A DNA stretch of 64,000 bases, taken from assembly GCA_002372275.1 (NCBI GenBank), contig DFFP01000013.1, positions 15,603 through 79,602 of the forward strand, written 5' to 3'. The translations under genes and the position numbers were made by a program. The stretch's first letter is position 1, and each line of letters opens with the position of its first letter. Positions 7,748-53,886 of this stretch are shown here, one piece after another. The stretch comes from Alphaproteobacteria bacterium UBA3773. GTDB lineage: Bacteria; Pseudomonadota; Alphaproteobacteria; RF32; CAG-239. A model generated the notes under the pieces. That model saw nothing but the letters and a program-made list of their open reading frames with translations, was not told the DNA's origin and did no database searches.

Positions 7748-8107
7748 ATGTTGATTGGTAATGCACTTGCAGCAACAGAAAACGTTGCTGATGTAGCAGG
7801 AACATCAGTAGCGGCAAACATTATTCAAATTTTGCTTATCTTTTTGGTGTTTTATCTGCTTCTTATTCGTCCGCAACAAAAAAAGATGAAACAGCATGAA
7901 GCTGAATTAACCGCCATCAAAACAGGTGATCAGGTCATCACGGGCGGCGGTTTATATGCAACAGTCAAAGAGTGCCGTGATGATGAGTTAACACTTGAAT
8001 TATCGGAAGGACTGACTGTTAAGGCCAACCGCTGGACCATTCGCGAGGTTTTAAAAGCCAAAGAAAACTCCGCACCCGTTCAAAAAAATAAAAAGAAAAA
8101 GAAATAA
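7748..8107 (+). CDS. yajC: Preprotein translocase subunit YajC
   Basis: Single TM segment followed by RPQQKKMKQHEAEL..GDQV.T.GG; it lies upstream of secD. Confidence 0.8.
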   Translation: MLIGNALAATENVADVAGTSVAANIIQILLIFLVFYLLLIRPQQKKMKQHEAELTAIKTGDQVITGGGLYATVKECRDDELTLELSEGLTVKANRWTIREVLKAKENSAPVQKNKKKKK

Positions 8108-13602: not shown

Positions 13603-14121
13603 TTATTCTCCTTTTTTGACGTCTTCAACAAACGGCAGATATTTTTTCAAAATTGATTGTACAATATTTTTTAAGGTTTCAGAAGCATGCACACATCCCT
13701 TACAATGACCTTCTAATTGGACAGATAAAACGCCGTTTTGAAAGTCTGTTACACTCAAATTTCCGCCATCTCGAATGAGAAAACCTCTGATTTGAGAGTC
13801 GATCAGAGCTTCAATGATTTTATGTTGCGCATTTTGAGAAAAAGTCATTTTTTCAAGATGATTAAAATCATAATCTGACAACTCTGCCATAATTTGCGAA
13901 GTCAAAAGTGCCCAATCGGCATTTTCTTCTTTTTCAACAAACAGCAAATTTTTCAACAATAAAACACGCTTTATTCCCATCAAATTTTGAATAATCTGTG
14001 TTAAATCTGCGCTGTTAAAATCAGAATCAGCGTACGATACATACATTTGCGGCTGTTCTTGCGTTTCAAAATAAAAATTCATTGCATTCGGATTATAAGT
14101 ATTTTCAGTTTCTATGAGCAT
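13603..14121 (-). CDS. NifU/Nfu-like Fe-S cluster scaffold domain protein
   Basis: C-terminal CxxC (GHCKGCVHAS) of the Nfu type. Confidence 0.55.
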   Translation of the reverse strand: MLIETENTYNPNAMNFYFETQEQPQMYVSYADSDFNSADLTQIIQNLMGIKRVLLLKNLLFVEKEENADWALLTSQIMAELSDYDFNHLEKMTFSQNAQHKIIEALIDSQIRGFLIRDGGNLSVTDFQNGVLSVQLEGHCKGCVHASETLKNIVQSILKKYLPFVEDVKKGE

Positions 14122-15049
14122 GATTTTTTATCACCTTTTTAAGAGCCTTTTCTGATTTAAGTGTCAAATACGCCAATTCAAGCAAATGATTGGGCGAAAA
14201 TGAAGAACCCGAATTGCCGTTTCGAATAATCAGCGGATCTAACACAACCCCCTTTTCAAGCGCTTGATAAACATCATCAAACAAAATATGATATTCCTGT
14301 TCAATGGCTTTTAAGAGCACATAACTTGTATATAAACGCCCTTGCGCTTTATAAAAGGCATCATCTGCTTTTCTGAATTTTTTGATTTCCATCGCCTCAT
14401 TTAATTCTTTTTCGGTGAAAATCAAATTATGCGCCACTGCATCCAAAACAATATTCGGATCGCTGAGCACATGACTTGGAACTTTGAGCAAAAATTGTTT
14501 TGCTTTGCGATATTGAGCCGTGGATGAGGGTTCGAGCTTAAAATCTTTTGTTTTGGAAAAAAGCCACACATCAAGAGGATACGACAAGAGTTCATCTGCT
14601 TTTTTCAAATTTTCATCTGTGGCTTGAAGTGCTATTTCATGAACAACATCTGATAAAGACAACATAATACCCGATTGAAAAGCCGGCATATTATCCAAAA
14701 TATAAGCCGGAAACACAAACGGCAGATTTGGCGTATACATATGCTTGTCAATTTCGCGGGTAATCAATCGAGACATTGTTTCAAAGACAGAATTTGTTGT
14801 TGTCTGATTTTTTTGTTCAAACTGAAGATTTTTATCAATTTTTTCGCAATATAAACTCCCAATGCCGTAATAAAGCACAATCAATGTCGGCACAATCACA
14901 ACAAGCGATTTCCATGATTTTTGAATATAAGCTGATATTTTTTTAATGTATGGTCCAAAATGGGCTTTGCACCACAAACCAAAATCTTTTAAATCGCGTC
15001 CCATCAGAAGTATATATATTTGAAGTTTATTTTTGAGTTCTTTTTTCAA
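14105..15049 (-). CDS. Hypothetical membrane-anchored protein
   Basis: Long ORF with one TM segment; no recognizable catalytic motif. Confidence 0.35.
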   Translation of the reverse strand: MKKELKNKLQIYILLMGRDLKDFGLWCKAHFGPYIKKISAYIQKSWKSLVVIVPTLIVLYYGIGSLYCEKIDKNLQFEQKNQTTTNSVFETMSRLITREIDKHMYTPNLPFVFPAYILDNMPAFQSGIMLSLSDVVHEIALQATDENLKKADELLSYPLDVWLFSKTKDFKLEPSSTAQYRKAKQFLLKVPSHVLSDPNIVLDAVAHNLIFTEKELNEAMEIKKFRKADDAFYKAQGRLYTSYVLLKAIEQEYHILFDDVYQALEKGVVLDPLIIRNGNSGSSFSPNHLLELAYLTLKSEKALKKVIKNHAHRN

Positions 15050-16623: not shown

Positions 16624-16793
16624 ATCCTTTTTTTCTTTCCAAGTTCCAAAACAAATGATATACTAATCTACACGAAAAATCTTTTGATTGCATTTAAAAA
16701 AAAACTTTTGCACGATTAAAAAAATATATTGACAAAACTTTTTTTACATGTTATTTTTAGACAAAATGAATACGAAACATAGGAATCGAAAAG

Positions 16794-17028: not shown

Positions 17029-17069
17029 AACCGATTGCCTTCTCCCTGCAATCGGTTTTCTTTTTTTTT
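17029..17069. terminator. Bidirectional rho-independent terminator between the small ORF (+) and rbfA (-)
   Basis: Hairpin accgattgc...gcaatcggt followed by a T-run. Confidence 0.6.
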
Positions 17070-36557: not shown

Positions 36558-36581
36558 ATCATTGAAAATTTGATAAAAAAA

Positions 36582-36609
36582 GTCCCTACTTTCAGTGGGG
36601 ATTTTTTTT
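36582..36609 (+). terminator. Rho-independent terminator after the DegT gene
   Basis: Hairpin tccctact-ttc-agtgggga followed by T8. Confidence 0.6.
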
Positions 36610-36688
36610 AGACAATAATAAAAAAAACATTTGACAATTTAGACAAATTATTTTATTCTATGGTCAGGTAAATATTTGGAGAATCCCC

Positions 36689-39600
36689 ATGGCAAATGAA
36701 CAAATGAGAAAATTTAACAGTAAAAATTTAGAAGAATATTTGGAAAACGCCGAAAATATTTTTAAGCACGGTTCGTCAGATGAGTTTGCAACCTCGCATG
36801 AACGCGCATTAGAGTATTTAGACGACTTTAATAACGGAAAATTAGATATTGATTTTGATGCAATTGATTCCATGGAGCGTTTTATTGAATATTTTGTCGG
36901 CGGATATAAAGTTGACAACCAAATGATGGCGCTTTACGATAAAGCTATGAAAAGATTAGAAGAATTGCGCAATGCGGCCAAACAGCAACAGCTTGAAGCA
37001 GAAAAGTCGGATTCTCAAGAAGAACTTCAAGCTCAAGAAGATAAAAAACAGCAAGAAAATGCAATTAAGGAAAATACTGAAGAGGTTGAAGTTGCCGATT
37101 TAACAAAGCTTTCAAATGAAAATCCTGAAGATCGCGCTAAAGTTGCACAAGTTCTCGAAGATCATCAAAAAGACTTTCCACTTGTTTATCAAAGTTTCGA
37201 AGAAATTTATCAAGATATTATCAAGGCCTATAAAACAGGCGAAGAAATTGATACACTTAACGATAAAATTCAAACAAAAGCTGACGCCGAAGCAGCACAG
37301 TTCGTGAAAAAAATTGTTGAAGAAAACACAGGCCATCAAGTTCCGACAATCAAAAAAACTTTGGTTATTGAAGACACTCATACTGATCAAGGTATTGATG
37401 ATAAGAAAATCAAAGATGTTGCCGAGCGCATTATAAATAACATAAAAGATACAAATAATCCTAAAGACGGCCGTCTTGATACCATTCAAAAAGAACTTTC
37501 AAGCTTAAATGGCGCTGAAATCGGTGCTCTTTATACCGAAATTGAAGGTAGAGATATTTCAACGAAGATTAAAGATAGATTGAAAACACAGTTATCTTAT
37601 CATTTAACAGAGAAGTTTTTAATCAAAAAAGAAGATCAAAAGCATACTTTTGAAGTTAGAGAAGATGTTGTTAATGCACTGTCTAATGAAGACGCAGCCG
37701 GTTATGTGACAGCTTTAGATATCGTGATGCAAAAGTCATATGATCAAAAGCGCCTTGATGACCTTTATGCCGCATTAAAACGCCGGGCAGAAGAGAAAGA
37801 ACAAACAAAAGTTTTAGATGATCTTTTAGGTCGTATTCGCAGTTTAAATTCGAATGCCAATGAAATCTTTTTAAATAGAGTTCGAATTGAAGCTTTACAT
37901 TCAATGAACAAAATTACGGATGCTGAAAGAACAGAGGCTTTACAAGATTCTCAAAAAGCAGCTCTATTGGTTGCCAATCACGAGTTAGAGCTTTCAGAAA
38001 ATCCGGCTGATCTTCAAACATATCGTGATTTTGTTTTTGATAAGTTGTTTGAAAATAAACAAACAAGAGATCTTGTACCACCGAAATATTTAGCCGCTAA
38101 ATATCTTGAATATGCTCAAAGAGCTGCCACAGAGCAGGATGTACAAAAAGTTCAAGAATATCAACAAAAGTGGCACGCTGTTGCAACCAGAATCCAAGAA
38201 TTAACGGATATGTTCGCCCGTGATGGACACCTGTCAAGGGATTTATATTTTGCTGATATCACCAACATAGCCGATATTTACGATGGATATATGGCCATGT
38301 TTGCCGCTGTTAAACCGGATTTAGAAGCTATGCTTCAAAATCCTCAAACAAAAGAAAGAGCAGAAGCAGATTTAAAGAAAATTGAAACATGCACTCAAAT
38401 TTTAGATGAACGAATCAAAGAATACGATGACGAATGGAATTTGACTCATTTACAAGAAACAGATGCTTTAGATGTTAATTCACGTATTGCCAAGATTCAA
38501 GATCAAATAAAAGACATTAAAGTCGATTCTGAAACCCTTAAACTTGCAAGTAATCTCAAATTCTTGGATGAAAACGGTAATATTGAACCTCAATTTATTG
38601 ATGAAAATGGTAACCAAACAGATGTATATTCCGAAGGTGCTAGGATTATTGAAGGAAGTAAACTTGATCAGCTCATCTATCTTTCCAAACAAGAAGTCAT
38701 TTCTAAAAATGCCGGTTCATCAGAAGAAATTACACCGGAATTTTTACAAAAAGAGCTTTCGGAAACTTTGGCCTCTTCTTTATATGCCATTCATGTTTCT
38801 GATCAAGTATCTAAAGGCGCTATAGAAAAAATTGATCAATTTACCAATAAAGATCATTTTGAAAAATTTAAAAATGATTTAGCGGACACTTCTCATCCGA
38901 TGAAGATCAGTCATCGAGGTTTTGAAGCCGGCAGATTTTCACTTGTTAATCGCTTGGATGCATATCGATCAAGGCTTACTCAAAAAATCGGACGCAATGC
39001 TCTGACAAATCGCGATGCGCATGCTGAAATGATTAAAAGAAAAGCCATGCAACTTGGTATGGCGCTTGGTGTGTCAACGGCCATCGGGCTTGTTTCCCTC
39101 GGAACAAACAAGGTTGTCGGTGCCGGTCTTGGTTGCGCACTGGGTGTAACGCTTTCAATTAAACAAATCCATAATTGGCGCAAACAACAAAAGGCCGAAG
39201 GAAAGCCTGCCGGTTTGAAAGAAATGTTTCATGATCGAAGACTTCGTCAAACAGTTGAAACGACAGCTTTAGCCGGTTGTGCCTTTGGCTTTTTAGCAAC
39301 AGGCAACCCTGATGTGGCCTTAGTTTTAGGAGGAGCCGCAATGGCAGTCGGATCAGTCAATGGCGCCATCTCTGATTATCAAGATGCCCAAAAAATGGGG
39401 ATGGGCAAAGGCTGGGCTGCCCTTTATGGCGCACTAGCGCCTATTATAACTGTCGGAGGAGGTCTTTTAGGCTCACAAGTTGTTGCACCGGGTATTGCAA
39501 ACTATGTTAACGAGCATTTTCCGAATAATACGATTTTCCAGCATAATGAGATCGTAGCTGGTGAAACGAAATCTATCAAAGTTGGAGAACGGACAACTAT

Positions 39601-41176
39601 AGATCAAGAAGCATTAGAAGCTGATTCTTCGCGTTATAACCAGCAATATGATATTGCCGGACGTCTTCATAACGGAATGACTCATGATCAGTATATGCAA
39701 GCCGTTGAAGAGTATAACCTCTCCCATCCGGATGCACCGATTACGCATCCTGATAATTTGTTACAACACGCATATAATGCAGAAAATGTTTATGGTCAGG
39801 GCTGGGCATCTGATCATGGTGTATCAATGACAGATATTAAAACATTGAGTCATTTAATTAATCCGGATGGTTCTATAAATCCTGATGCTGTCCAAGTATA
39901 TGAAAATGGTCAATTTATAAATCATGCCGGTTTAGAAAATTTTGTGGGAAAAGTATCTGATCCCAATATTGAACAAAGAGCTGATTTATATCCGACAAAA
40001 GATCCGCATTCAACCTATTCTGATATGAATCAACCGACAAAAACCGAAGCCATATACCGTGAAGTAACACCCATTGATCGTGTACCAGTGGCAAATCAAG
40101 GTCCTTTAATTATGGCAACTTTTGGCATATTAGATAGAGCCAAACAAAAATTAAGAAATACCAAAGAACGCATCGGCGCTTTGGCGGATATAGTTCTACG
40201 TCGCAAAAAAGACAAGCCTCGTCCCGGACCTCAACCGGTTATTGTTAATCCCCCACACGAGGATGACAATAAGAAGAAAAAGACTTATGTGACACCTGTC
40301 GTGACACAAATTGAAAAAGAACCGGTACATATTCTTCCCTCATCCCCGGCACCTCAACCTACTCCGGTCAAAGAAGATCCGAAACAGGCTCCAACGCCGA
40401 AACCTGAGCCATGGAAAGATAAATTATTGATTGATGAATATAAAATCGTCTATGGTATCGAACCGAAAGTTACTGCTTCTGAAGGTGAAAAGAGCCCTGC
40501 CGAGTTGTACTATGATCGTATTGAAAGTGAGCGTAAAGTTGAAGCTCCTGATTTATCCATGACCGACTATCTTTTAGCTCGTCGTGAAAAATTGGATAAA
40601 CTTGTTGCAACGATTGAAACTCAAGCAAACAATGCTTCTTTTGATCCGACAAAATGTAGAGCCGACTATATGACACGCAAAATAAAAGATCAAAGAGCCG
40701 GTGCAGAAATTGTTGCCAAATCGCGTCAAAGTCTGCAACAAAGTAATTTAACACATGAAAATTACAATCAAAAAGTTACTTTGACTCATTTCTTGAAATA
40801 TATGGAATATTATATTAAAGGGTCTGATGTTGTTGCTGATGGCTCTCGCGATATGACCTTAAATCCCGAGTTAAAACGTGATAATCGCGTAATTCACACA
40901 TATGATATCAATAAAATTTTGCTTGAAGGAAAAGATCCGAGTAGTGATGACAGTAAATTAACTGGCGATGCTCACATCACCTTTGGTGATATCAGAAGAA
41001 TCCATAACGAACGTACACGCGATGAAAAAATCGATGGTATCCATCCACCATTGACAAACGAAGTTGTCGCCAATTTTGCTAATCGCTTGGCAAAACTTGA
41101 TGAGGACAAAGCTAAAAATAACAGTCAGAGCGCTCAAGTTTCTGCTGGCAAAAAAAAAAGATACACGGGCCGATGA
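36689..41176 (+). CDS. Giant modular protein, N-terminal 1,495-aa segment (frame broken at an A10 tract)
   Basis: No signal peptide. Acidic coiled-coil-rich N-terminal ~800 aa, a Gly-rich hydrophobic region (~39040..39500), then the first ~180-aa C-terminal module. It terminates 16 nt after A10 at 41150..41159. Confidence 0.7.
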   Translation: MANEQMRKFNSKNLEEYLENAENIFKHGSSDEFATSHERALEYLDDFNNGKLDIDFDAIDSMERFIEYFVGGYKVDNQMMALYDKAMKRLEELRNAAKQQQLEAEKSDSQEELQAQEDKKQQENAIKENTEEVEVADLTKLSNENPEDRAKVAQVLEDHQKDFPLVYQSFEEIYQDIIKAYKTGEEIDTLNDKIQTKADAEAAQFVKKIVEENTGHQVPTIKKTLVIEDTHTDQGIDDKKIKDVAERIINNIKDTNNPKDGRLDTIQKELSSLNGAEIGALYTEIEGRDISTKIKDRLKTQLSYHLTEKFLIKKEDQKHTFEVREDVVNALSNEDAAGYVTALDIVMQKSYDQKRLDDLYAALKRRAEEKEQTKVLDDLLGRIRSLNSNANEIFLNRVRIEALHSMNKITDAERTEALQDSQKAALLVANHELELSENPADLQTYRDFVFDKLFENKQTRDLVPPKYLAAKYLEYAQRAATEQDVQKVQEYQQKWHAVATRIQELTDMFARDGHLSRDLYFADITNIADIYDGYMAMFAAVKPDLEAMLQNPQTKERAEADLKKIETCTQILDERIKEYDDEWNLTHLQETDALDVNSRIAKIQDQIKDIKVDSETLKLASNLKFLDENGNIEPQFIDENGNQTDVYSEGARIIEGSKLDQLIYLSKQEVISKNAGSSEEITPEFLQKELSETLASSLYAIHVSDQVSKGAIEKIDQFTNKDHFEKFKNDLADTSHPMKISHRGFEAGRFSLVNRLDAYRSRLTQKIGRNALTNRDAHAEMIKRKAMQLGMALGVSTAIGLVSLGTNKVVGAGLGCALGVTLSIKQIHNWRKQQKAEGKPAGLKEMFHDRRLRQTVETTALAGCAFGFLATGNPDVALVLGGAAMAVGSVNGAISDYQDAQKMGMGKGWAALYGALAPIITVGGGLLGSQVVAPGIANYVNEHFPNNTIFQHNEIVAGETKSIKVGERTTIDQEALEADSSRYNQQYDIAGRLHNGMTHDQYMQAVEEYNLSHPDAPITHPDNLLQHAYNAENVYGQGWASDHGVSMTDIKTLSHLINPDGSINPDAVQVYENGQFINHAGLENFVGKVSDPNIEQRADLYPTKDPHSTYSDMNQPTKTEAIYREVTPIDRVPVANQGPLIMATFGILDRAKQKLRNTKERIGALADIVLRRKKDKPRPGPQPVIVNPPHEDDNKKKKTYVTPVVTQIEKEPVHILPSSPAPQPTPVKEDPKQAPTPKPEPWKDKLLIDEYKIVYGIEPKVTASEGEKSPAELYYDRIESERKVEAPDLSMTDYLLARREKLDKLVATIETQANNASFDPTKCRADYMTRKIKDQRAGAEIVAKSRQSLQQSNLTHENYNQKVTLTHFLKYMEYYIKGSDVVADGSRDMTLNPELKRDNRVIHTYDINKILLEGKDPSSDDSKLTGDAHITFGDIRRIHNERTRDEKIDGIHPPLTNEVVANFANRLAKLDEDKAKNNSQSAQVSAGKKKRYTGR

Positions 41177-43565
41177 TACAACAAGGCAGAGGGCTGTAAA
41201 TCCCCCTGCCCCGAAACCTCAATCTCGAGGGGAAAAAGGCCTTACGGGTATAGCACCTGTTGAAAAACATGCTAAGCCTGAAGAACGTCGCGAACCCGTG
41301 ACACCTCCCGCACCGGTTCAAAAACCTAAAGAGGAAACAAGAGAAGCTCCAAAACCCGAGCCAACTGTTGTTGAAACAAGAGAAGCACCGAAACCTGAGA
41401 CAACTGTTGTTGAAACAAGAGAAGCACCGAAACCTGAGCCAAAAGTTGTTGAAACAAGAGAAGCACCGAAACTCGAGCCGAAAGTTGTTGAAACAAAAGA
41501 AGCGCCGAAACCTGAGCCTGTTTCAGAAACTCAGCTGTTCATTGACGAATATAAAACCGTCTACGGCGTCGAACCGAATTTCAAAGCGCCTAAAGGTGAA
41601 AAAAGCCCGGCAGAGTTGTACTATGATCGTGTTGAAAGTGAGCATCAACTTGAGGCTCCGAAACAATCGATGAGAGATTATCTGCTGGCTCGCCGCAAAG
41701 CATTGAATGACATCATCAAGGGTAATCCTCAATATGGTCAAACAAATGCTGAAATTATTGCAGCCGCTCGTCAAAGTTTGCTTCAGAGCAATTTAACAAC
41801 GGAAAATTATAACAATCGCCTGACTTTGTCTCACTTTACACGCTATATGACACTTTTCATTCATAGCGATGAAATTTTGGCTGACGGCTCACGCGATATG
41901 ACCTTAAATCCCGAGTTAAAACGTGATAATCGCGTAATTCACACATACGATATCAACAAGATTTTGTTTGAAGGAACGGATCCGAGAAGTGATGACAGTA
42001 AATTAACCGGCGATGCTCACATCACCTACGATGACATCAGAAGACTCCAAAATGAGCGCACACCTGAAGAAATAGAAAATGATTTTCATATTTCTCTGAC
42101 AAATGATGTTGTTGCAAATTTTGCCGAACGCTTTAAAGAACTTGATAAAGCTAAAGAAATTCAAGAAGCTGAACTCAAAGCAAAAGAAAAAGAAAAAGAA
42201 AAAGAAAAAGCTGAGACCGTGACACCTCCGATGCCGGTTCAAAAGCCTGAACCGAAAGAGAAAGAAGCTCCAAAACCCGAGCCGACCATTGTTGAAACAA
42301 AAAAAGCGCCGAAACCTCAATCTCAAGAAGAAAAAGGTCTCACCGGCGCGGCACCTATAACGGAATATGTCAAACCCGAGGAACACCATGAACCTGTTCA
42401 AAGCGTTCAAGATGAAAATAAATCTCTTCAAAATGAACCTTGGAACAATCCGTTATTGCTTCAAGAGTACGAAATCGTTTATGGTATTACGCCAAAAGTC
42501 ACTGCTTTAGAAGGTGAAAAGAGTCCTGCCGAATTGTACTATAAACGCGTTGCCAAAGAACGTTCTTTAGAAGGCTCACATCAATCAATCACGGATTATC
42601 TTTTAAGACGCCGTAAGAGATTGGATGAAATGGTTCAACTTTTAAAGCATCAACCAAACAATGCGACCTTTGACCCGAAAATCATGCTCGAGGATTACAG
42701 CGATCACTTAACGGGGCGCAAATCAGGTGGCAGAGCCGGTTCTGAGATTGTCACAAAAACGCGTCAAAGCCTTATGCAAAGTAATTTAACACCTGAAAAT
42801 TATGTCAAGCGTCTTACTTTGACACACTTTTTAAGATACATGAAACATTTTATTGAAGGTAATGAATTATTTTCTGACGGCTCACGTGATATGAGTTTGA
42901 ACCCAAGCTTAAAACGTAACTCAAATCACATATCGACTCATGATGTGAATGATGCCATTTTAAGCGGCAAAATTGAAAGAGCGCCAAAACGAGTAACAAA
43001 TGTAGTCATACATCGGCCCAAAAAAGAGCCTTGGAAAAATCCGTTATTGATGGAAGAATACAGAATCGTTTATGGTGTCGCTCCGAAAGCTGATTTAGAA
43101 CACTTAAAAGCTTACTGTAAACGTGTCATCAAAGAGCATCATAAAGAAGGCTTACACCGCTCAATGACAGAATATCTTTTAAGACGCCTCAGAAGGTTAG
43201 ACAGACTTGTAAAAGAAGTCAAAACGCAACCTAATAATGCTACTTTTGACCCTCAAGTAATGATCCAAGATTACAGCGATCACTTAACAGGTAAAAAAGC
43301 AGGCGGCCGAGCCGGTTCTGAAATTGTCATGAAAGCTCGCCAAAGCCTCATGCAAAGTAATCTGGCACCTGAAAATTACGTCAAGCGCTTTACTTTGACA
43401 CACTTTTTGAAGTACATAAAACACTTCATTGAAGGTAATGAGTTGGCCTCTGACAGCACGCGCAATATGAGTTTGAACCCTGACTTAAAACGTCGTTCAA
43501 ACACTATTCAAACACGTGATCTCAACGAAATCATTTTAGCGGAAAAATCTTCAAAAAGTAAATAA
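41064..43565 (+). CDS. Giant modular protein, C-terminal 833-aa segment (would be fused to the upstream ORF if A10 were A9)
   Basis: Overlaps the upstream ORF by 113 nt in another frame. Contains PKPEP/ETREAPKPEP linker repeats and three further ~180-aa modules homologous to module 1. Confidence 0.7.
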   Translation: MSPILLIAWQNLMRTKLKITVRALKFLLAKKKDTRADDTTRQRAVNPPAPKPQSRGEKGLTGIAPVEKHAKPEERREPVTPPAPVQKPKEETREAPKPEPTVVETREAPKPETTVVETREAPKPEPKVVETREAPKLEPKVVETKEAPKPEPVSETQLFIDEYKTVYGVEPNFKAPKGEKSPAELYYDRVESEHQLEAPKQSMRDYLLARRKALNDIIKGNPQYGQTNAEIIAAARQSLLQSNLTTENYNNRLTLSHFTRYMTLFIHSDEILADGSRDMTLNPELKRDNRVIHTYDINKILFEGTDPRSDDSKLTGDAHITYDDIRRLQNERTPEEIENDFHISLTNDVVANFAERFKELDKAKEIQEAELKAKEKEKEKEKAETVTPPMPVQKPEPKEKEAPKPEPTIVETKKAPKPQSQEEKGLTGAAPITEYVKPEEHHEPVQSVQDENKSLQNEPWNNPLLLQEYEIVYGITPKVTALEGEKSPAELYYKRVAKERSLEGSHQSITDYLLRRRKRLDEMVQLLKHQPNNATFDPKIMLEDYSDHLTGRKSGGRAGSEIVTKTRQSLMQSNLTPENYVKRLTLTHFLRYMKHFIEGNELFSDGSRDMSLNPSLKRNSNHISTHDVNDAILSGKIERAPKRVTNVVIHRPKKEPWKNPLLMEEYRIVYGVAPKADLEHLKAYCKRVIKEHHKEGLHRSMTEYLLRRLRRLDRLVKEVKTQPNNATFDPQVMIQDYSDHLTGKKAGGRAGSEIVMKARQSLMQSNLAPENYVKRFTLTHFLKYIKHFIEGNELASDSTRNMSLNPDLKRRSNTIQTRDLNEIILAEKSSKSK
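41150..41159 (+). repeat. Poly(A)10 homopolymeric tract at the frameshift site
   Basis: Ten consecutive A's. Deleting one A (or inserting two) joins the two ORFs into a single reading frame of about 2,290 codons. Confidence 0.9.
41338..41519 (+). repeat. 39-bp tandem repeat, about 4.7 copies (encodes ETREAPKPEP(T/K)VV)
   Basis: The unit agagaagcaccgaaacctgagccaaaagttgttgaaaca is repeated in tandem with minor variation. Confidence 0.85.
42181..42210 (+). repeat. (GAAAAA)n hexanucleotide tract encoding (KE)n
   Basis: gaaaaagaaaaagaaaaagaaaaag lying inside the coding sequence. Confidence 0.8.
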
Positions 43566-43579
43566 GTTAAAATGAATAA

Positions 43580-43608
43580 AAAAACCTCTCAAATGAGAGG
43601 TTTTTTTT
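43580..43608 (+). terminator. Rho-independent terminator after the giant gene
   Basis: Hairpin acctctc-aaatg-agaggt followed by T8. Confidence 0.75.
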
Positions 43609-49304: not shown

Positions 49305-49381
49305 CGGATTGTAGTTCAGCCTGGTAGAACGCTTCGTTCGGGTCGAAGAGGTCGCTGGTTCGAATCCAGTCAATCCGACCA
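49305..49381 (+). tRNA. tRNA-Pro (anticodon CGG)
   Basis: Cloverleaf: acceptor CGGATTG/CAATCCG, D-stem GTTC/GAAC, anticodon stem CTTCG/CGAAG with loop TTCGGGT, T-arm GCTGG-TTCGAAT-CCAGT, encoded CCA. Confidence 0.9.
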
Positions 49382-50036: not shown

Positions 50037-50972
50037 ATGAATAACGCATTAATTTTAAATGAAGACTATTTAGAGTTTCATGCAAAGCCCGTTTTAAAGT
50101 GGGCTGGCGGCAAAGGTATGCTTTTACCACAAATCACAGAGCATTTACCTACAAAGTTAAAATTTGGTGCAATAAAGCGTTATATTGAACCGTTTGTCGG
50201 CGGTGGTGCTGTTTTCTTTGAACTGACAAACAACTATAATTTTGAAGATGCGTATCTGTTTGATGTTAATCCTGAACTAGTTATACTCTATAATGTGATT
50301 AAAAATAACGTTGAAGATTTGATATCTGAGTTGTCCGTTTTACAGCAAGCTTATAATGATGCATCGGATAAAACGGCATTCTACTATTCTATTCGTGATG
50401 AGTATAATCATTTTGATAAAAATGTGGATGCAAATAAATATACAACTGATTTTATTAGGCGCGCAGCTTTAACAGTTTGTTTGAACCGAACCTGTTTTAA
50501 TGGTTTGTTTAGGGTTAATTCAAAGGGACTGTTTAACGTTCCTGTCGGAAAGTACAAGAATCCGCGGATTTTAGATGAAAGTAATTTAAGAGAAGTTTCA
50601 AAAGCTCTGCAGTGCGCAACAATACTGCAAACGGATTTTGCTTCTGCTTTAGACTATGTAAACTCTGATGCCTTTGTTTATTATGACCCACCGTATCGAC
50701 CGATTAACGCCAGTTCGTTTAATTCTTATGCTGTTGGCGATTTTGATGATGATGAACAAAGACGTTTAAAAGATGTTTTCGCTAAGGCAAATGAGTTAGG
50801 CGCTTTGCAGATGCTCAGCAATTCTGACCCGACCAACTACAATCCTAAAGACATGTTCTTTGATAGTTTATATCGTGATTATACAATTCACAGAATTTGG
50901 GCAAAAAGAATGATTAATGCTGATCCGAATGGTCGCGATGGTGTAAGGGAACTTTTAATTACGAACTATTGA
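50037..50972 (+). CDS. Dam-family (alpha-class) N6-adenine DNA methyltransferase
   Basis: N-terminal AdoMet motif LKWAGGKG and the catalytic YYDPPY later in the sequence, which is the order seen in Dam/M.DpnII-like enzymes. Confidence 0.85.
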   Translation: MNNALILNEDYLEFHAKPVLKWAGGKGMLLPQITEHLPTKLKFGAIKRYIEPFVGGGAVFFELTNNYNFEDAYLFDVNPELVILYNVIKNNVEDLISELSVLQQAYNDASDKTAFYYSIRDEYNHFDKNVDANKYTTDFIRRAALTVCLNRTCFNGLFRVNSKGLFNVPVGKYKNPRILDESNLREVSKALQCATILQTDFASALDYVNSDAFVYYDPPYRPINASSFNSYAVGDFDDDEQRRLKDVFAKANELGALQMLSNSDPTNYNPKDMFFDSLYRDYTIHRIWAKRMINADPNGRDGVRELLITNY

Positions 50973-50974
50973 GA

Positions 50975-51760
50975 ATGAAAGAGATTTATAATTTATATTG
51001 TGCCGATTGTATTAAAAAATTAAAAGATTTCCCTGAAAACACTTTTGATATGATTTTTGCTGACCCGCCTTATATGCTTTCTAATGGTGGTATTAGTTGT
51101 CAAAACGGACGTGTTGTTTCCGTTAATAAAGGTGATTGGGATGAAAGCAAAGGTTTCAAAGAAGATTTTAAATTTCACAAGAAATGGTTGTCAGCCTGTA
51201 AGCGCGTTTTGAAACCAAATGGAACTTTATGGGTATCCGGAACCTATCACAGCATTTTTCAATGTGGTTTTGCTATGCAGTTACTGGGGTATCATATTCT
51301 AAATGATATTTCTTGGTTTAAGCCTAATGCCAGCCCGAATATGTCTTGTCGTTATTTCACAGCAAGTCATGAAACGTTGATTTGGGCCAGAAAAGATAAG
51401 AAATCGCGGCACTATTTTAATTATGATGCGATGAAAGACGGGGATTTTCCGAAAGATTTTATTAAAAAACCTCACTCGCAAATGAGAAGTGTTTGGTCTA
51501 TCGGAACACCTACACCGAGTGAAAAACAATTTGGGAAGCACCCGACCCAAAAGCCTTTGGAGTTGTTGGAACGAATCATTCTCGCTTCAACAAAGGAAAA
51601 TGACCTGATTTTGGATCCGTTTATGGGAAGTGGCACAACCGGAGTAGCCGCTATGAAATTAGGTCGACAATTTATCGGAATCGAAAAGAATCCGGAATTT
51701 ATCGTGCTGGCGGATAAAAGGATTTTTGATGCGTATCAACATAAGGAGAATAAAGAATGA
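50975..51760 (+). CDS. Beta-class N6A/N4C DNA methyltransferase (M.DpnA/M.MboIC-like)
   Basis: Catalytic DPPY near the N-terminus (MIFADPPYM) and AdoMet motif ILDPFMGSGTTG near the C-terminus. An ATG at 50975 is preferred over the TTG at 50969. Confidence 0.85.
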   Translation: MKEIYNLYCADCIKKLKDFPENTFDMIFADPPYMLSNGGISCQNGRVVSVNKGDWDESKGFKEDFKFHKKWLSACKRVLKPNGTLWVSGTYHSIFQCGFAMQLLGYHILNDISWFKPNASPNMSCRYFTASHETLIWARKDKKSRHYFNYDAMKDGDFPKDFIKKPHSQMRSVWSIGTPTPSEKQFGKHPTQKPLELLERIILASTKENDLILDPFMGSGTTGVAAMKLGRQFIGIEKNPEFIVLADKRIFDAYQHKENKE

Positions 51761-52299
51761 AAGAAAATGGTATAGGTGGTGCAAACACCAAGACAGGTTT
51801 GGTCTTTGAAGGAAAAACAGATTTGCAAACATTTTTATGTGGGCAAAAGGGATACTCATGCCAAACTAATAATTCAGGTTGGGTAGATGTCTTTTATAAC
51901 AAAGAACAAGTTGCTTCTATTTTTAAGAAAACAGCACTATATCGTTTTCTCGACAGTAGAAAGGTTGATTGGAAATCTATATTATCCAAAAAACTTTTGC
52001 CAGACGATTCTATTTATGTCGTCTGCAATAATACCTTTTTTGTTATAGAATGTAAATTTCAGAAAGTTGCAGGTTCTGTTGATGAAAAACTACAAACATG
52101 TGATTTTAAGAAAAAACAATATAAAAAGTTGTTGGCTCAACTTAATATGGAAGTAGAATATATATACTTATTGAGTGAGTGGTTTAAACAAAAACAATAT
52201 AAAGATGTTTTGGAGTATATTATTTCTGTTGGATGCTCTTATTACTTTGAATACATTCCGTTGAGCAAGTTTGGTTTACCTGTTCCTGAAAAAATATGA
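51757..52299 (+). CDS. Putative type II restriction endonuclease (PD-(D/E)xK)
   Basis: 180 aa with PDD...(15 aa)...IECK, matching the PD-(D/E)xK signature. Its ATG overlaps the MTase stop (ATGA). Specificity unknown. Confidence 0.5.
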   Translation: MKENGIGGANTKTGLVFEGKTDLQTFLCGQKGYSCQTNNSGWVDVFYNKEQVASIFKKTALYRFLDSRKVDWKSILSKKLLPDDSIYVVCNNTFFVIECKFQKVAGSVDEKLQTCDFKKKQYKKLLAQLNMEVEYIYLLSEWFKQKQYKDVLEYIISVGCSYYFEYIPLSKFGLPVPEKI

Positions 52300-52312
52300 A
52301 AGGAAAATTTAT

Positions 52313-53368
52313 ATGACAAAAGAATATAATTACAAGTTAACGAGTTATAATGCGAGTTTTAGCTTAAAAGAGTATACAGAAAGATATGCTGAAAAAAGTA
52401 TCTCTGATGAGGAAAATGTGCTCAAAATAGGTCGTTTCTTTGCACCAGCTTTTCAAAGAAATGCTGTTTGGACTGATAAAGCTAAAAGTAAGCTAATCGA
52501 AACTTTTTTAATTAAGTTACCTGTTCCTCCTGTTTTTTTATACAAAAATAGAAATGCTCAACATGAAATTATTGATGGTTATCAGAGAATTAAAACAATA
52601 TATGATTTTATGAAAAATAAGCTAAGGTTGGTAGGTTTAGATAGCTGTTACAACAAAAAAATCTTTGATGATTTATCAGAAATAGAAAAAGCTGACTTTG
52701 AAACAAAGATGTTAAATTGTGTTATCATAGAAAATATTGATGAAACAAGTGATAGAGATGCTTTATATGAAATTTTTGCGCGCCTAAATTCTGGGGGAAC
52801 AAATTTAAATAATATGGAGATTAGAAGAGCGATAGGTTGGGGCAGATTATTATTTGACATAGAAGAATTTAATAAAACTAGAGAATGGAAACTTTTATGG
52901 GGAGAAAAAACAGCAAATCGTTATGAGGATATAGAATTAATTTTAAGAATTCTGGCATTATCTGAAGTAGTATTTGATAAAGGAATGAGGGAATTTTTAA
53001 ATAATTATCTTGAAGACAATAAATATGCAGATAAGCGTGAAAAGTTAAATCTTCTGAAGAACTCCATTTTACTAATTTTAGAAAATTATAAATCTAATAA
53101 GCCTTTTCACAGCGAAAAAGGAACAAGAGTAAATTTTGCTCTTGCTGATTCTATTTTACCTGTGATAATGAATCATCCCGAAATTTCCAACATTTCTCAA
53201 AAACTTCATAAATTACTGGATAGAGATTTTGATAACTATTATAGTAGCGAGCTAGAAAAGGAACTTTGTAAAAATTTCCAAAGTATTTGTTTTAAAGGGC
53301 AAGGTTCTATATCGAAAAAAGCTGTTTGTGAACGTAGAAATATCGCTGAAAAGATTTTATTGTCATGA
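52313..53368 (+). CDS. DUF262 (ParB-like, DGQHR-motif) domain protein
   Basis: Conserved FQR...DGYQRI motif (the DGxQR of DUF262/GmrSD N-terminal domains). An RBS aagga immediately follows the REase stop, and the ATG at 52313 is preferred over the TTG at 52271. Confidence 0.7.
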   Translation: MTKEYNYKLTSYNASFSLKEYTERYAEKSISDEENVLKIGRFFAPAFQRNAVWTDKAKSKLIETFLIKLPVPPVFLYKNRNAQHEIIDGYQRIKTIYDFMKNKLRLVGLDSCYNKKIFDDLSEIEKADFETKMLNCVIIENIDETSDRDALYEIFARLNSGGTNLNNMEIRRAIGWGRLLFDIEEFNKTREWKLLWGEKTANRYEDIELILRILALSEVVFDKGMREFLNNYLEDNKYADKREKLNLLKNSILLILENYKSNKPFHSEKGTRVNFALADSILPVIMNHPEISNISQKLHKLLDRDFDNYYSSELEKELCKNFQSICFKGQGSISKKAVCERRNIAEKILLS

Positions 53369-53886
53369 TAGTATATCTAAAACAGACGGAAAAACTTTTT
53401 CTTTCTCTTAACGAGGAATATAAAAATTCAAAAGCTGCAGGTGTGTTGACAGTTGTAACTCCTACGGCATTTGTTTCTTTTTTAATTATTCGTCTATCGT
53501 GCGAATTCGAATATTATGTACATGACATTGTAATTAAAAAGTGGAAATCTGAAACAACTTCAACAAAATTACATAATTTTCTACAAAATAAAATAAAAAT
53601 TCGTTCCTCTAAAAGAGAGCAATTACGTAATAATTTAAAAGAATATTTTGTAGATATTGATAATATTGATATTTTGTTTACTGATGACAAAGGGAAAAAT
53701 TACTATGATAAGATATTTGGAAAGAAAAAGGATGAGACAGGAGAGAATAATATAAGAGACCAAATAGCACATTTGTTAAGTTTACAGTTTTCTCTGTTGC
53801 CTCAATGGGATGAAATGTATGATTATATCCAAATTTGTGATAATGCCTTACAAAATATTGAAGCGAATTTGGATTTTAAGATGTAA
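53365..53886 (+). CDS. HEPN-like protein (Rx4H motif), possibly of the MAE_28990/MAE_18760-like family
   Basis: The start overlaps the DUF262 stop (ATGA). All-helical, with a C-terminal ...NNIRDQIAHLL (R-x4-H) motif. The family assignment is made from memory. Confidence 0.45.
   Translation: MIVYLKQTEKLFLSLNEEYKNSKAAGVLTVVTPTAFVSFLIIRLSCEFEYYVHDIVIKKWKSETTSTKLHNFLQNKIKIRSSKREQLRNNLKEYFVDIDNIDILFTDDKGKNYYDKIFGKKKDETGENNIRDQIAHLLSLQFSLLPQWDEMYDYIQICDNALQNIEANLDFKM

Follow-up and report, generated by a model that had tools for sequence, protein, structure and literature searches.

What does a bacterium make from a giant gene whose reading frame breaks at a run of ten A's: a truncated protein, two products of different length or, had the run been misread, a single long protein? 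The question is raised by positions 36,689 to 43,565 of a stretch of 64,000 nucleotides (nt) from contig DFFP01000013.1 of Alphaproteobacteria bacterium UBA3773 (hereafter the window, whose coordinates are used unless another locus is named), in which two overlapping open reading frames (ORFs), ORF1 and ORF2, switch frame at a poly-A tract. A preliminary description of this DNA had proposed a single gene interrupted by a frameshift, and had left its nature open between a contingency locus, a pseudogene and a sequencing artefact. Our analysis favors, with about even confidence, a real slippery tract at the boundary between a standard protein and a three-module extension, from which mainly a 169-kDa protein and some of a 260-kDa form would be made.

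The interrupted gene and its ortholog

The anatomy of the locus was exactly as first described, both in the coordinates and frames of the ORFs and in their overlap of 113 nt. ORF2 occupies 41064..43565 in frame 0 and has 833 codons when counted from a TTG. Ten A's were found at 41150..41159, and removal of one of them joins the ORFs, as had been claimed, into one uninterrupted frame of 2,291 codons encoding 260.0 kDa. The part 3' of the tract accounts for 801 amino acids (91.9 kDa) of this product and has no stop codon. The elements on which the argument turns are:

36689..41176, + strand: ORF1, frame 2, 1,495 amino acids, 168.7 kDa, ending ...AGKKKRYTGR before its stop; an identical protein, P0001, is on record
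41125..41203, + strand: conserved island of about 80 nt, which contains the A-run and aligns with the sister species (L001) amid linkers that are otherwise unalignable
41150..41159, + strand: A10 tract, the frameshift site and the longest homopolymer of the 64-kb window
41160..43565, + strand: extension, reached through a +1 frame change; 801 codons with two Pro-rich linkers and modules 2-4, ending ...AEKSSKSK before its stop

Evidence for a single gene came from a search with the fused 2,291-codon sequence against 5.8 billion proteins, which returned only two matches: ORF1 itself (P0001) and P0002, a protein of 2,245 amino acids with 79% identity in the best local alignment. P0002 is encoded by a single intact ORF on metagenome contigs L001 and L002, flanked as in the window by genes for MlaC, MlaA and a DegT-type aminotransferase upstream and by DUF378, DJ-1-like and M16 peptidase genes downstream. 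The fused product and P0002 align from end to end with the join inside the tract (...SAGKKK/DTRADD... vs ...PAGKKKK ATQDD...). At the homologous position the ortholog, from sample SAMEA7016625, has A12, in frame, and the window aligns to it gap-free when given A9. Because the ortholog is a single syntenic ORF with A12 at the tract, the locus represents one gene and not two; the related gene is intact, rather than a pair of genes each with an independent start and ribosome-binding site. A peptide of 167 amino acids spanning the tract, used as a query, matched nothing, not even P0001, which we treat as an index miss and not as evidence.

The signals around the gene are arranged as follows:

36631..36659, + strand: promoter-like site TTGACA-17-TATTCT, a consensus match only (10 of 12 positions)
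36678..36691, + strand: Shine-Dalgarno-like GGAG and ATG start, sequence TTTGGAGAATCCCCATG, with the GGAG 7 nt before the ATG
43578..43608, no single strand: two-way terminator hairpin (A7-stem-loop-stem-T8) common to the gene and the convergent DUF378 gene

The preceding gene, for a DegT-type aminotransferase, has its terminator hairpin (36575..36609) 5' of the promoter-like site; on the + strand, no terminator-like hairpin follows the gene start before the one at 43578..43608, 3' of ORF2. A consensus and hairpin scan of the + strand between ORF1 and ORF2 found no terminator-like site and no convincing promoter. The start of ORF2 lacks a Shine-Dalgarno sequence and a credible start codon; the candidates in its frame are TTG and ATG codons 5' of the tract, without a Shine-Dalgarno sequence, and then a GTG 140 nt 3' of it. 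Database gene calls for the second part begin arbitrarily, at GTG 41298 in one record and at TTG 41616 in another. As predicted from this layout, the locus forms a single transcription unit and was ancestrally one gene, in agreement with the interruption at the A-run that had been proposed.

A standard protein and its extension

Whether the interruption destroys a protein or trims one depends on what ORF1 encodes by itself. The following parts were distinguished, the modules by a common profile:

39044..39499, + strand: hydrophobic Gly/Ala-rich stretch, residues 786-937, in which about four membrane segments are predicted (Kyte-Doolittle), strongly conserved in the family
39494..40213, + strand: conserved domain after the membrane region, residues 936-1175
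40403..41149, + strand: module 1, long type, LLIDEYKIVYG..., the standard C-terminal module
41334..41518, + strand: 39-bp tandem repeat of 4.7 copies (Tandem Repeats Finder), encoding ETREAPKPEPKVV, in linker 2
41505..42155, + strand: module 2, long type
42423..42989, + strand: module 3
43014..43562, + strand: module 4

All four modules match the one profile (E 1e-57 to 1e-72) and are 65-80% identical to each other in DNA, which bears out the claim that both ORFs carry the same module family. An AlphaFold2 model of module 1 was all-helical (predicted local distance difference test score, pLDDT, 80.5), and a fold search with it gave no relative. Neither ORF had a meaningful match in Pfam, NCBIfam, PHROGs or PDB sequences; a match to Mov-10_helical (E 4e-7) was dismissed as no single stretch passes alone, and one to PrsA fell under the cut-off. 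The label of a surface or effector gene used in the preliminary description gained no backing from these searches or from the fold search.

A profile of the conserved core recovered 20 relatives of 977-1,554 amino acids, all of them hypothetical proteins of Alphaproteobacteria metagenome-assembled genomes. Three further, distant loci from uncultured Alphaproteobacteria, gut samples among them, were found in genome_contigs, and one more relative, the truncated distant locus L007, in metagenome_contigs; viral_contigs held no relative and so gave no phage link. The usual order in the family is a helical N-terminal part, the Gly/Ala-rich membrane region, the conserved domain, a Pro-rich linker, one module and a short tail. 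When the module profile was run against 1.84 billion representative proteins only 71 matched, nearly all with a single C-terminal module in proteins of 1,100-1,600 amino acids. Exactly one terminal module was present in 17 relatives and two in one relative, and four were seen only in the window gene and P0002. The gene for P0011 (locus L009), the nearest relative with a single module, has DUF378 immediately behind it, as ORF2 has here, and modules 2-4 are thus a lineage-specific extension.

The gene product is best explained as a modular membrane protein of an uncharacterised alphaproteobacterial family, of which ORF1 alone, judged by its predicted architecture, is a complete standard member. 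The best explanation for the position of the A-run is that it sits in a linker at what would be the former, ancestral C-terminus. Since ORF1 already has the full standard architecture of body plus one C-terminal module, the tract would decide whether three extra modules are added, and an ON/OFF switch of the whole protein is probably not at work. Of the phase-variation switch first suggested, a change controlled by the tract is therefore retained, while the loss of the entire protein is probably not.

The module 1 cassettes of the two sister species are of different types. Module 1 of the window (40403..41149) and that of L001 (~13740..14310) are 32% identical, whereas the flanking core and modules 2-4 are 76-89% identical between the species, and the flanks 85-90%. 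The window's module 1 resembles the module of P0011 and its own module 2, and that of the ortholog resembles the modules of P0019 and P0013.

The A10 tract and the readings it allows

Three kinds of observation bear on whether the tract is real and maintained: selection on the extension, the purity of the A-run, and the behavior of other homopolymers and assemblies. The ratio of nonsynonymous to synonymous substitution rates (dN/dS) against the ortholog was 0.23 for the whole extension (0.27 for module 2, 0.09 for module 3 and 0.17 for module 4) and 0.32 upstream of the tract, and no further stop or frameshift was found in the 2.4 kb of the extension. An old pseudogene is excluded by the 801 stop-free codons and the dN/dS of 0.23, and that part of the original pseudogene option can be rejected. 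The frame is disrupted relative to an intact ortholog, as in a pseudogene, yet there is no relaxed constraint downstream.

Lysine in the long ORFs of the window is encoded by AAA in 83.5% of cases. Other lysine runs of at least three residues were nonetheless interrupted by AAG in all 10 cases in window ORFs and in the one case at the ortholog locus, an outcome with a chance of P ~2e-4 from codon frequencies for all 11; the same gene, for instance, spells a KKKK that lies 880 nt upstream as AAGAAGAAAAAG. The A10 at 41150..41159 is the only homopolymer of at least 9 within coding regions of the window, and the other runs of 9 (A9 at 16696; T9 at 17061, 33205 and 48344), judged against gene maps, are all intergenic. 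In its genes the genome steers clear of slippery A-runs, this tract being the exception in both species.

One base was added or removed at each of 120 homopolymers of the window, and only the A10 was found to fuse two real ORFs, so that the assembly shows no general homopolymer problem. An A7 at 8082..8088 that had been flagged lies at the end of a 119-amino-acid ORF, 10 nt before the next gene with its own ribosome-binding site, and is not a frameshift. A10 is also present in two other assemblies of the same strain, a SPAdes contig with coverage 7.79 (L003) and a scaffold from sample SAMN02144231 (L008). Apart from the 39-bp tandem repeat their sequence is that of the window, and both break in the repeat at the same base (a contig end in L003, an N-gap in L008), so that they may derive from one read set and their agreement on A10 is only partly independent. 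At these ends the two assemblies hold extra repeat units (GAAACAAAAGAAACTCAGAAACCCGAGCCGAAAGTTGTT) that are missing from the window; the array may be collapsed in the window, or polymorphic in copy number. Since each unit is a multiple of 3 nt, their number leaves the reading frame unchanged.

Bacterial RNA polymerase slips efficiently on runs of at least 9 A or T, so that transcripts gain bases or, in some cases, lose them (PMC5009743). The tract has the length and setting for this, being a run of at least 9 A's in a transcribed coding region whose shifted frames give defined products. As assembled, A10 would by plain decoding yield the 169-kDa standard form of 1,495 amino acids, the frame stopping 5 codons past the tract. 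RNA polymerase, and at a lower rate DNA polymerase, would slip on such a run, and the transcripts or cells that come to carry A9 or A12 would produce the 260-kDa, 2,291-amino-acid form with four modules. A11 transcripts would give a second short form, a predicted product of 1,503 amino acids ending ...MIQQGRGL after 13 sense codons past the last Lys codon. In the sister species, with A12, the default would be reversed, the long form being usual and short forms arising by slippage. The stops of both shifted frames (TGA 41174..41176 and TAA 41197..41199) lie within the conserved island. Slippage of DNA (phase variation) is compatible with all observations equally with slippage of RNA. The homopolymer lies within the frame, and the downstream frame is intact in the out-of-frame state; tract length is A10 in all three same-strain assemblies and A10 vs A12 between the two sister species. 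We infer that slippage occurs at this tract and that the ratio of the isoforms matters. If so, a single base of homopolymer length would set the proportion of a 169-kDa to a 260-kDa protein with three extra modules in an uncultured rumen or gut alphaproteobacterium, its sister species would be set the opposite way, and isoform control of the tssM1 and dnaX type (discussed below) would extend beyond model organisms to a family with no assigned function or fold.

Several points weigh against this reading. Slippage at the site is deduced from sequence alone, and as ORF1 is complete the loss of the extension could merely be tolerated. The 83.5% AAA bias by itself gives a pure tract a prior near 0.5, the avoidance argument draws on 11 other Lys runs, and in the databases searched the tract is known from two species, so that its conservation is thinly sampled. 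The k-mer coverage of the SPAdes contig is just 7.8, the possible sharing of one read set makes the agreement on A10 weak independent support, and a G9 tract that splits a distant relative (locus L006, described below) could also be an assembly error.

Two rival explanations accept a single gene and deny the tract a role. It is somewhat unlikely, in our judgement, that A10 is a real, recent and effectively fixed +1 insertion without function, behind which the cut-off extension is due to decay. Homopolymers are mutational hot spots, the whole family architecture is retained in ORF1, the closest outgroup manages without the extension, and a dN/dS from a comparison with another species is shaped largely by the period preceding such a mutation. 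Against a neutral event of this kind stand a tract of pure A in both species where Lys runs elsewhere are AAG-interrupted, the lack of even one further lesion in 2.4 kb, and a similar polymorphic linker homopolymer in a second clade; RNA polymerase slippage at A10 would be expected to restore some of the long form in any case (PMC5009743; PMC4256274). That A10 is an artefact of sequencing or assembly, or a length variant in the minority that the assembler chose, in a genome that really has A9 or A12 and an intact ORF of 2,291 or 2,292 codons, we regard as unlikely. The absence of any decay in the extension is what an uninterrupted gene would show, and the gap-free alignment of the A9 version fits it too; as the longest homopolymer of the window A10 is the one most prone to error, coverage is low (cov_7.79), and the common contig break of the A10-bearing assemblies may mean shared reads. 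Yet A10 stands in the window and in two other assemblies, De Bruijn assemblers output only paths found in reads, and 0 of 119 other homopolymers, including A8 and T8 inside genes, break a gene. An Illumina HiSeq origin of the data would also speak against an artefact, as that platform has a low indel rate at 10-mers. If the record name SHIW14-1 denotes the work on sheep rumen by Shi et al. 2014, a link made from the name only (a literature search for SAMN02144231 found nothing), the data are PCR-free Illumina HiSeq 2x150 reads (PMC4158751), from a study that deposited metagenomes together with metatranscriptomes (SRA075938). Were the artefact real, the lesson would be the ordinary one, that long homopolymers in metagenome-assembled genomes should be checked.

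The remaining alternatives keep A10 and change how the second part is translated. Annotation pipelines now split the gene into two arbitrary ORFs (P0001 with P0022 or P0023), and their calls from GTG 41298 or TTG 41616 amount to two genes, a standard one with a single module and, after it, a three-module gene translated independently. Such a pair is highly improbable given the single ORF of the ortholog, to which the ORF2 frame stays homologous right up to the tract, the lack of a Shine-Dalgarno sequence or ATG near the start of the second frame, and the lack, between the ORFs, of a convincing promoter or a + strand terminator. A programmed +1 shift of the ribosome at AAA-AGA, with the P-site tRNA-Lys slipping during the wait at a slow AGA codon (cf. 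Ty1 CUU-AGG and prfB), is scarcely credible. A slip from AAA A to A AAA would re-pair perfectly and yield exactly ...KKKDTRADD, but AGA is not rare (28% of Arg codons in the window ORFs), the sequence just upstream holds no SD-like stimulator, and the downstream 100 nt fold no better than shuffled sequence (z = -1.09). Slippage at the A-run, which we prefer to all of these, can be compared with systems in which a homopolymer is known to govern a product.

Shifted frames, other tracts and known systems

The closest parallel is tssM (Citrobacter rodentium tssM1; Yersinia pseudotuberculosis tssM; Gueguen et al. 2014, PMC4256274). In C. rodentium tssM1 an A11 stands a few codons before a premature stop and the C-terminal domain lies in the +1 frame; transcripts carry 10-15 A's, 20-25% of the product is the long form, and both forms are needed (PMC4256274). 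The two loci share a large interrupted gene for a membrane protein (in the inner membrane for tssM1), a poly-A run a few codons before the stop (A11 there, A10 here), and restoration of the frame by the loss of one A or the gain of two. The protein families are unrelated, and the part missing from the short form is an essential standard domain in tssM1, whereas here it is the short form that is standard, lineage-specific modules being added in the long form. Slippage, the two products and the need for both were moreover established by experiment for tssM1; in the present case slippage and two products are predicted from sequence. In the dnaX gene of Thermus thermophilus (tau/gamma), transcriptional slippage operates with stops in both non-zero frames (PMC5009743). 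Our gene resembles it in having a homopolymer of at least 9 at a domain boundary with nearby stops in both non-zero frames, and since these stops are close by, slipped transcripts in both cases give a defined shorter product (a predicted one here). The likeness fits the in-frame A12 of the sister species especially well. Unlike dnaX, an essential replication gene with products in a fixed 1:1 ratio, the present gene has a default isoform that differs between two species.

Contingency loci of Neisseria, Haemophilus, Campylobacter and Helicobacter likewise have a homopolymer within the coding region of a large variable gene, with lengths that differ among relatives by non-multiples of three (A10/A12 here, G8/G9 in another clade) and an intact downstream frame. 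They differ in that the tract here lies near the 3' third and truncates the protein rather than abolishing it. Poly-A tracts of 10 also switch less readily than the poly-G/C tracts typical of contingency loci. In Buchnera and Blochmannia, frameshifts in poly(A) tracts are rescued by polymerase infidelity (cited in PMC5009743); an out-of-frame poly-A of about 10 with purifying selection downstream is common to both situations, but theirs is genome-wide in very AT-rich reduced genomes, and here a single site is affected in a genome in which such runs are otherwise avoided.

The conserved body with exchangeable C-terminal modules recalls polymorphic proteins of the Rhs/CdiA type. Unlike those, the gene has no toxin or immunity domain, no Rhs/YD or FHA repeat and no Pfam match, the gene downstream of it is the convergent DUF378, and the modules are homologous to one another rather than unrelated toxins. 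At locus L004 (13110..13700), directly 3' of a family gene, lies an out-of-frame orphan of the last ~60 amino acids of the conserved core, 68% identical to residues 898-957 of L005; behind it comes a C-terminal tail like that of L005, in degenerate form. The arrangement has the look of a C-terminal cassette that has been displaced, as at Rhs/CdiA loci, and suggests that the family may swap C-terminal modules by recombination at the end of the core.

A homopolymer in a comparable place was found in a distant clade of the family, in which a conserved poly-G tract, the only long homopolymer in each of these genes, lies in the linker between the body and a single module:

L010 4031..4038, L011 4061..4068 and L012 4031..4038: G8 tract, in frame
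L006 5514..5522: G9 tract in a Hadza-gut genome, out of frame and splitting the gene

The G8 was in frame in three strains from different samples, and was also present in the genes of proteins P0003, P0005 and P0007. These tracts either vary naturally or attract assembly errors.

The shifted frames at the A10 tract led to a further proposal. Family C-termini (P0003-P0021, P0026-P0073) mostly have Arg within the last four residues (...GGR, ...GRS, ...GRE, ...AKSR), as in 18 of 21 relatives vs 15% expected (p ~1e-12, not corrected for relatedness). This signature, which may be a sorting or processing signal, is absent from the four-module long forms (...SSKSK in the window). The ortholog frames were translated by hand from the DNA alignment of the island, and the two short frames compare as follows:

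Frame with one extra A relative to the in-frame length: window ...KKKRYTGR, ortholog ...KKKKSYSR, each before a stop
Frame with one A fewer or two extra: window ...KKKKIHGPMIQQGRGL, ortholog ...KKKKLLKMIQQGRRL, each before a stop

Both short frames therefore end with Arg close to the stop in both species (...YTGR and ...QQGRGL in the window; ...SYSR and ...QQGRRL in the ortholog). The A-run could then be under selection for decoding in three frames, at the ancestral C-terminus of a family that swaps cassettes, a tentative idea that we consider rather unlikely. Each frame through the conserved island would have its use: the two short ones would restore the C-terminal Arg signature, the long one would add three modules and end without it, and tract length alone (A10 vs A12) would give species-specific isoform ratios. 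The Arg ends of the short products are suggestive and not proof, as the conserved GATGAT gives an Arg before TGA with a chance of about 1/2. Five nucleotide differences between the species were counted by hand in the island; all five are nonsynonymous in the long frame, and 2 of the 4 that precede the stop of the ...MIQQGRxL frame are silent in that frame, a pattern that weakly supports dual coding.

Elsewhere in the window, a low-GC stretch at ~50340..53870 (= L008 18422..21950; GC fraction 0.29 at 52-54 kb) carries genes for two DNA methyltransferases (MethyltransfD12 and N6_N4_Mtase), a PDDEXK_11 nuclease-like protein and GmrSD_N, and probably represents an island for restriction-modification or defence. 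In the sister species the corresponding place is taken by rhamnose-biosynthesis genes. A single tRNA gene at 49305..49378 is the sole Rfam match in the window.

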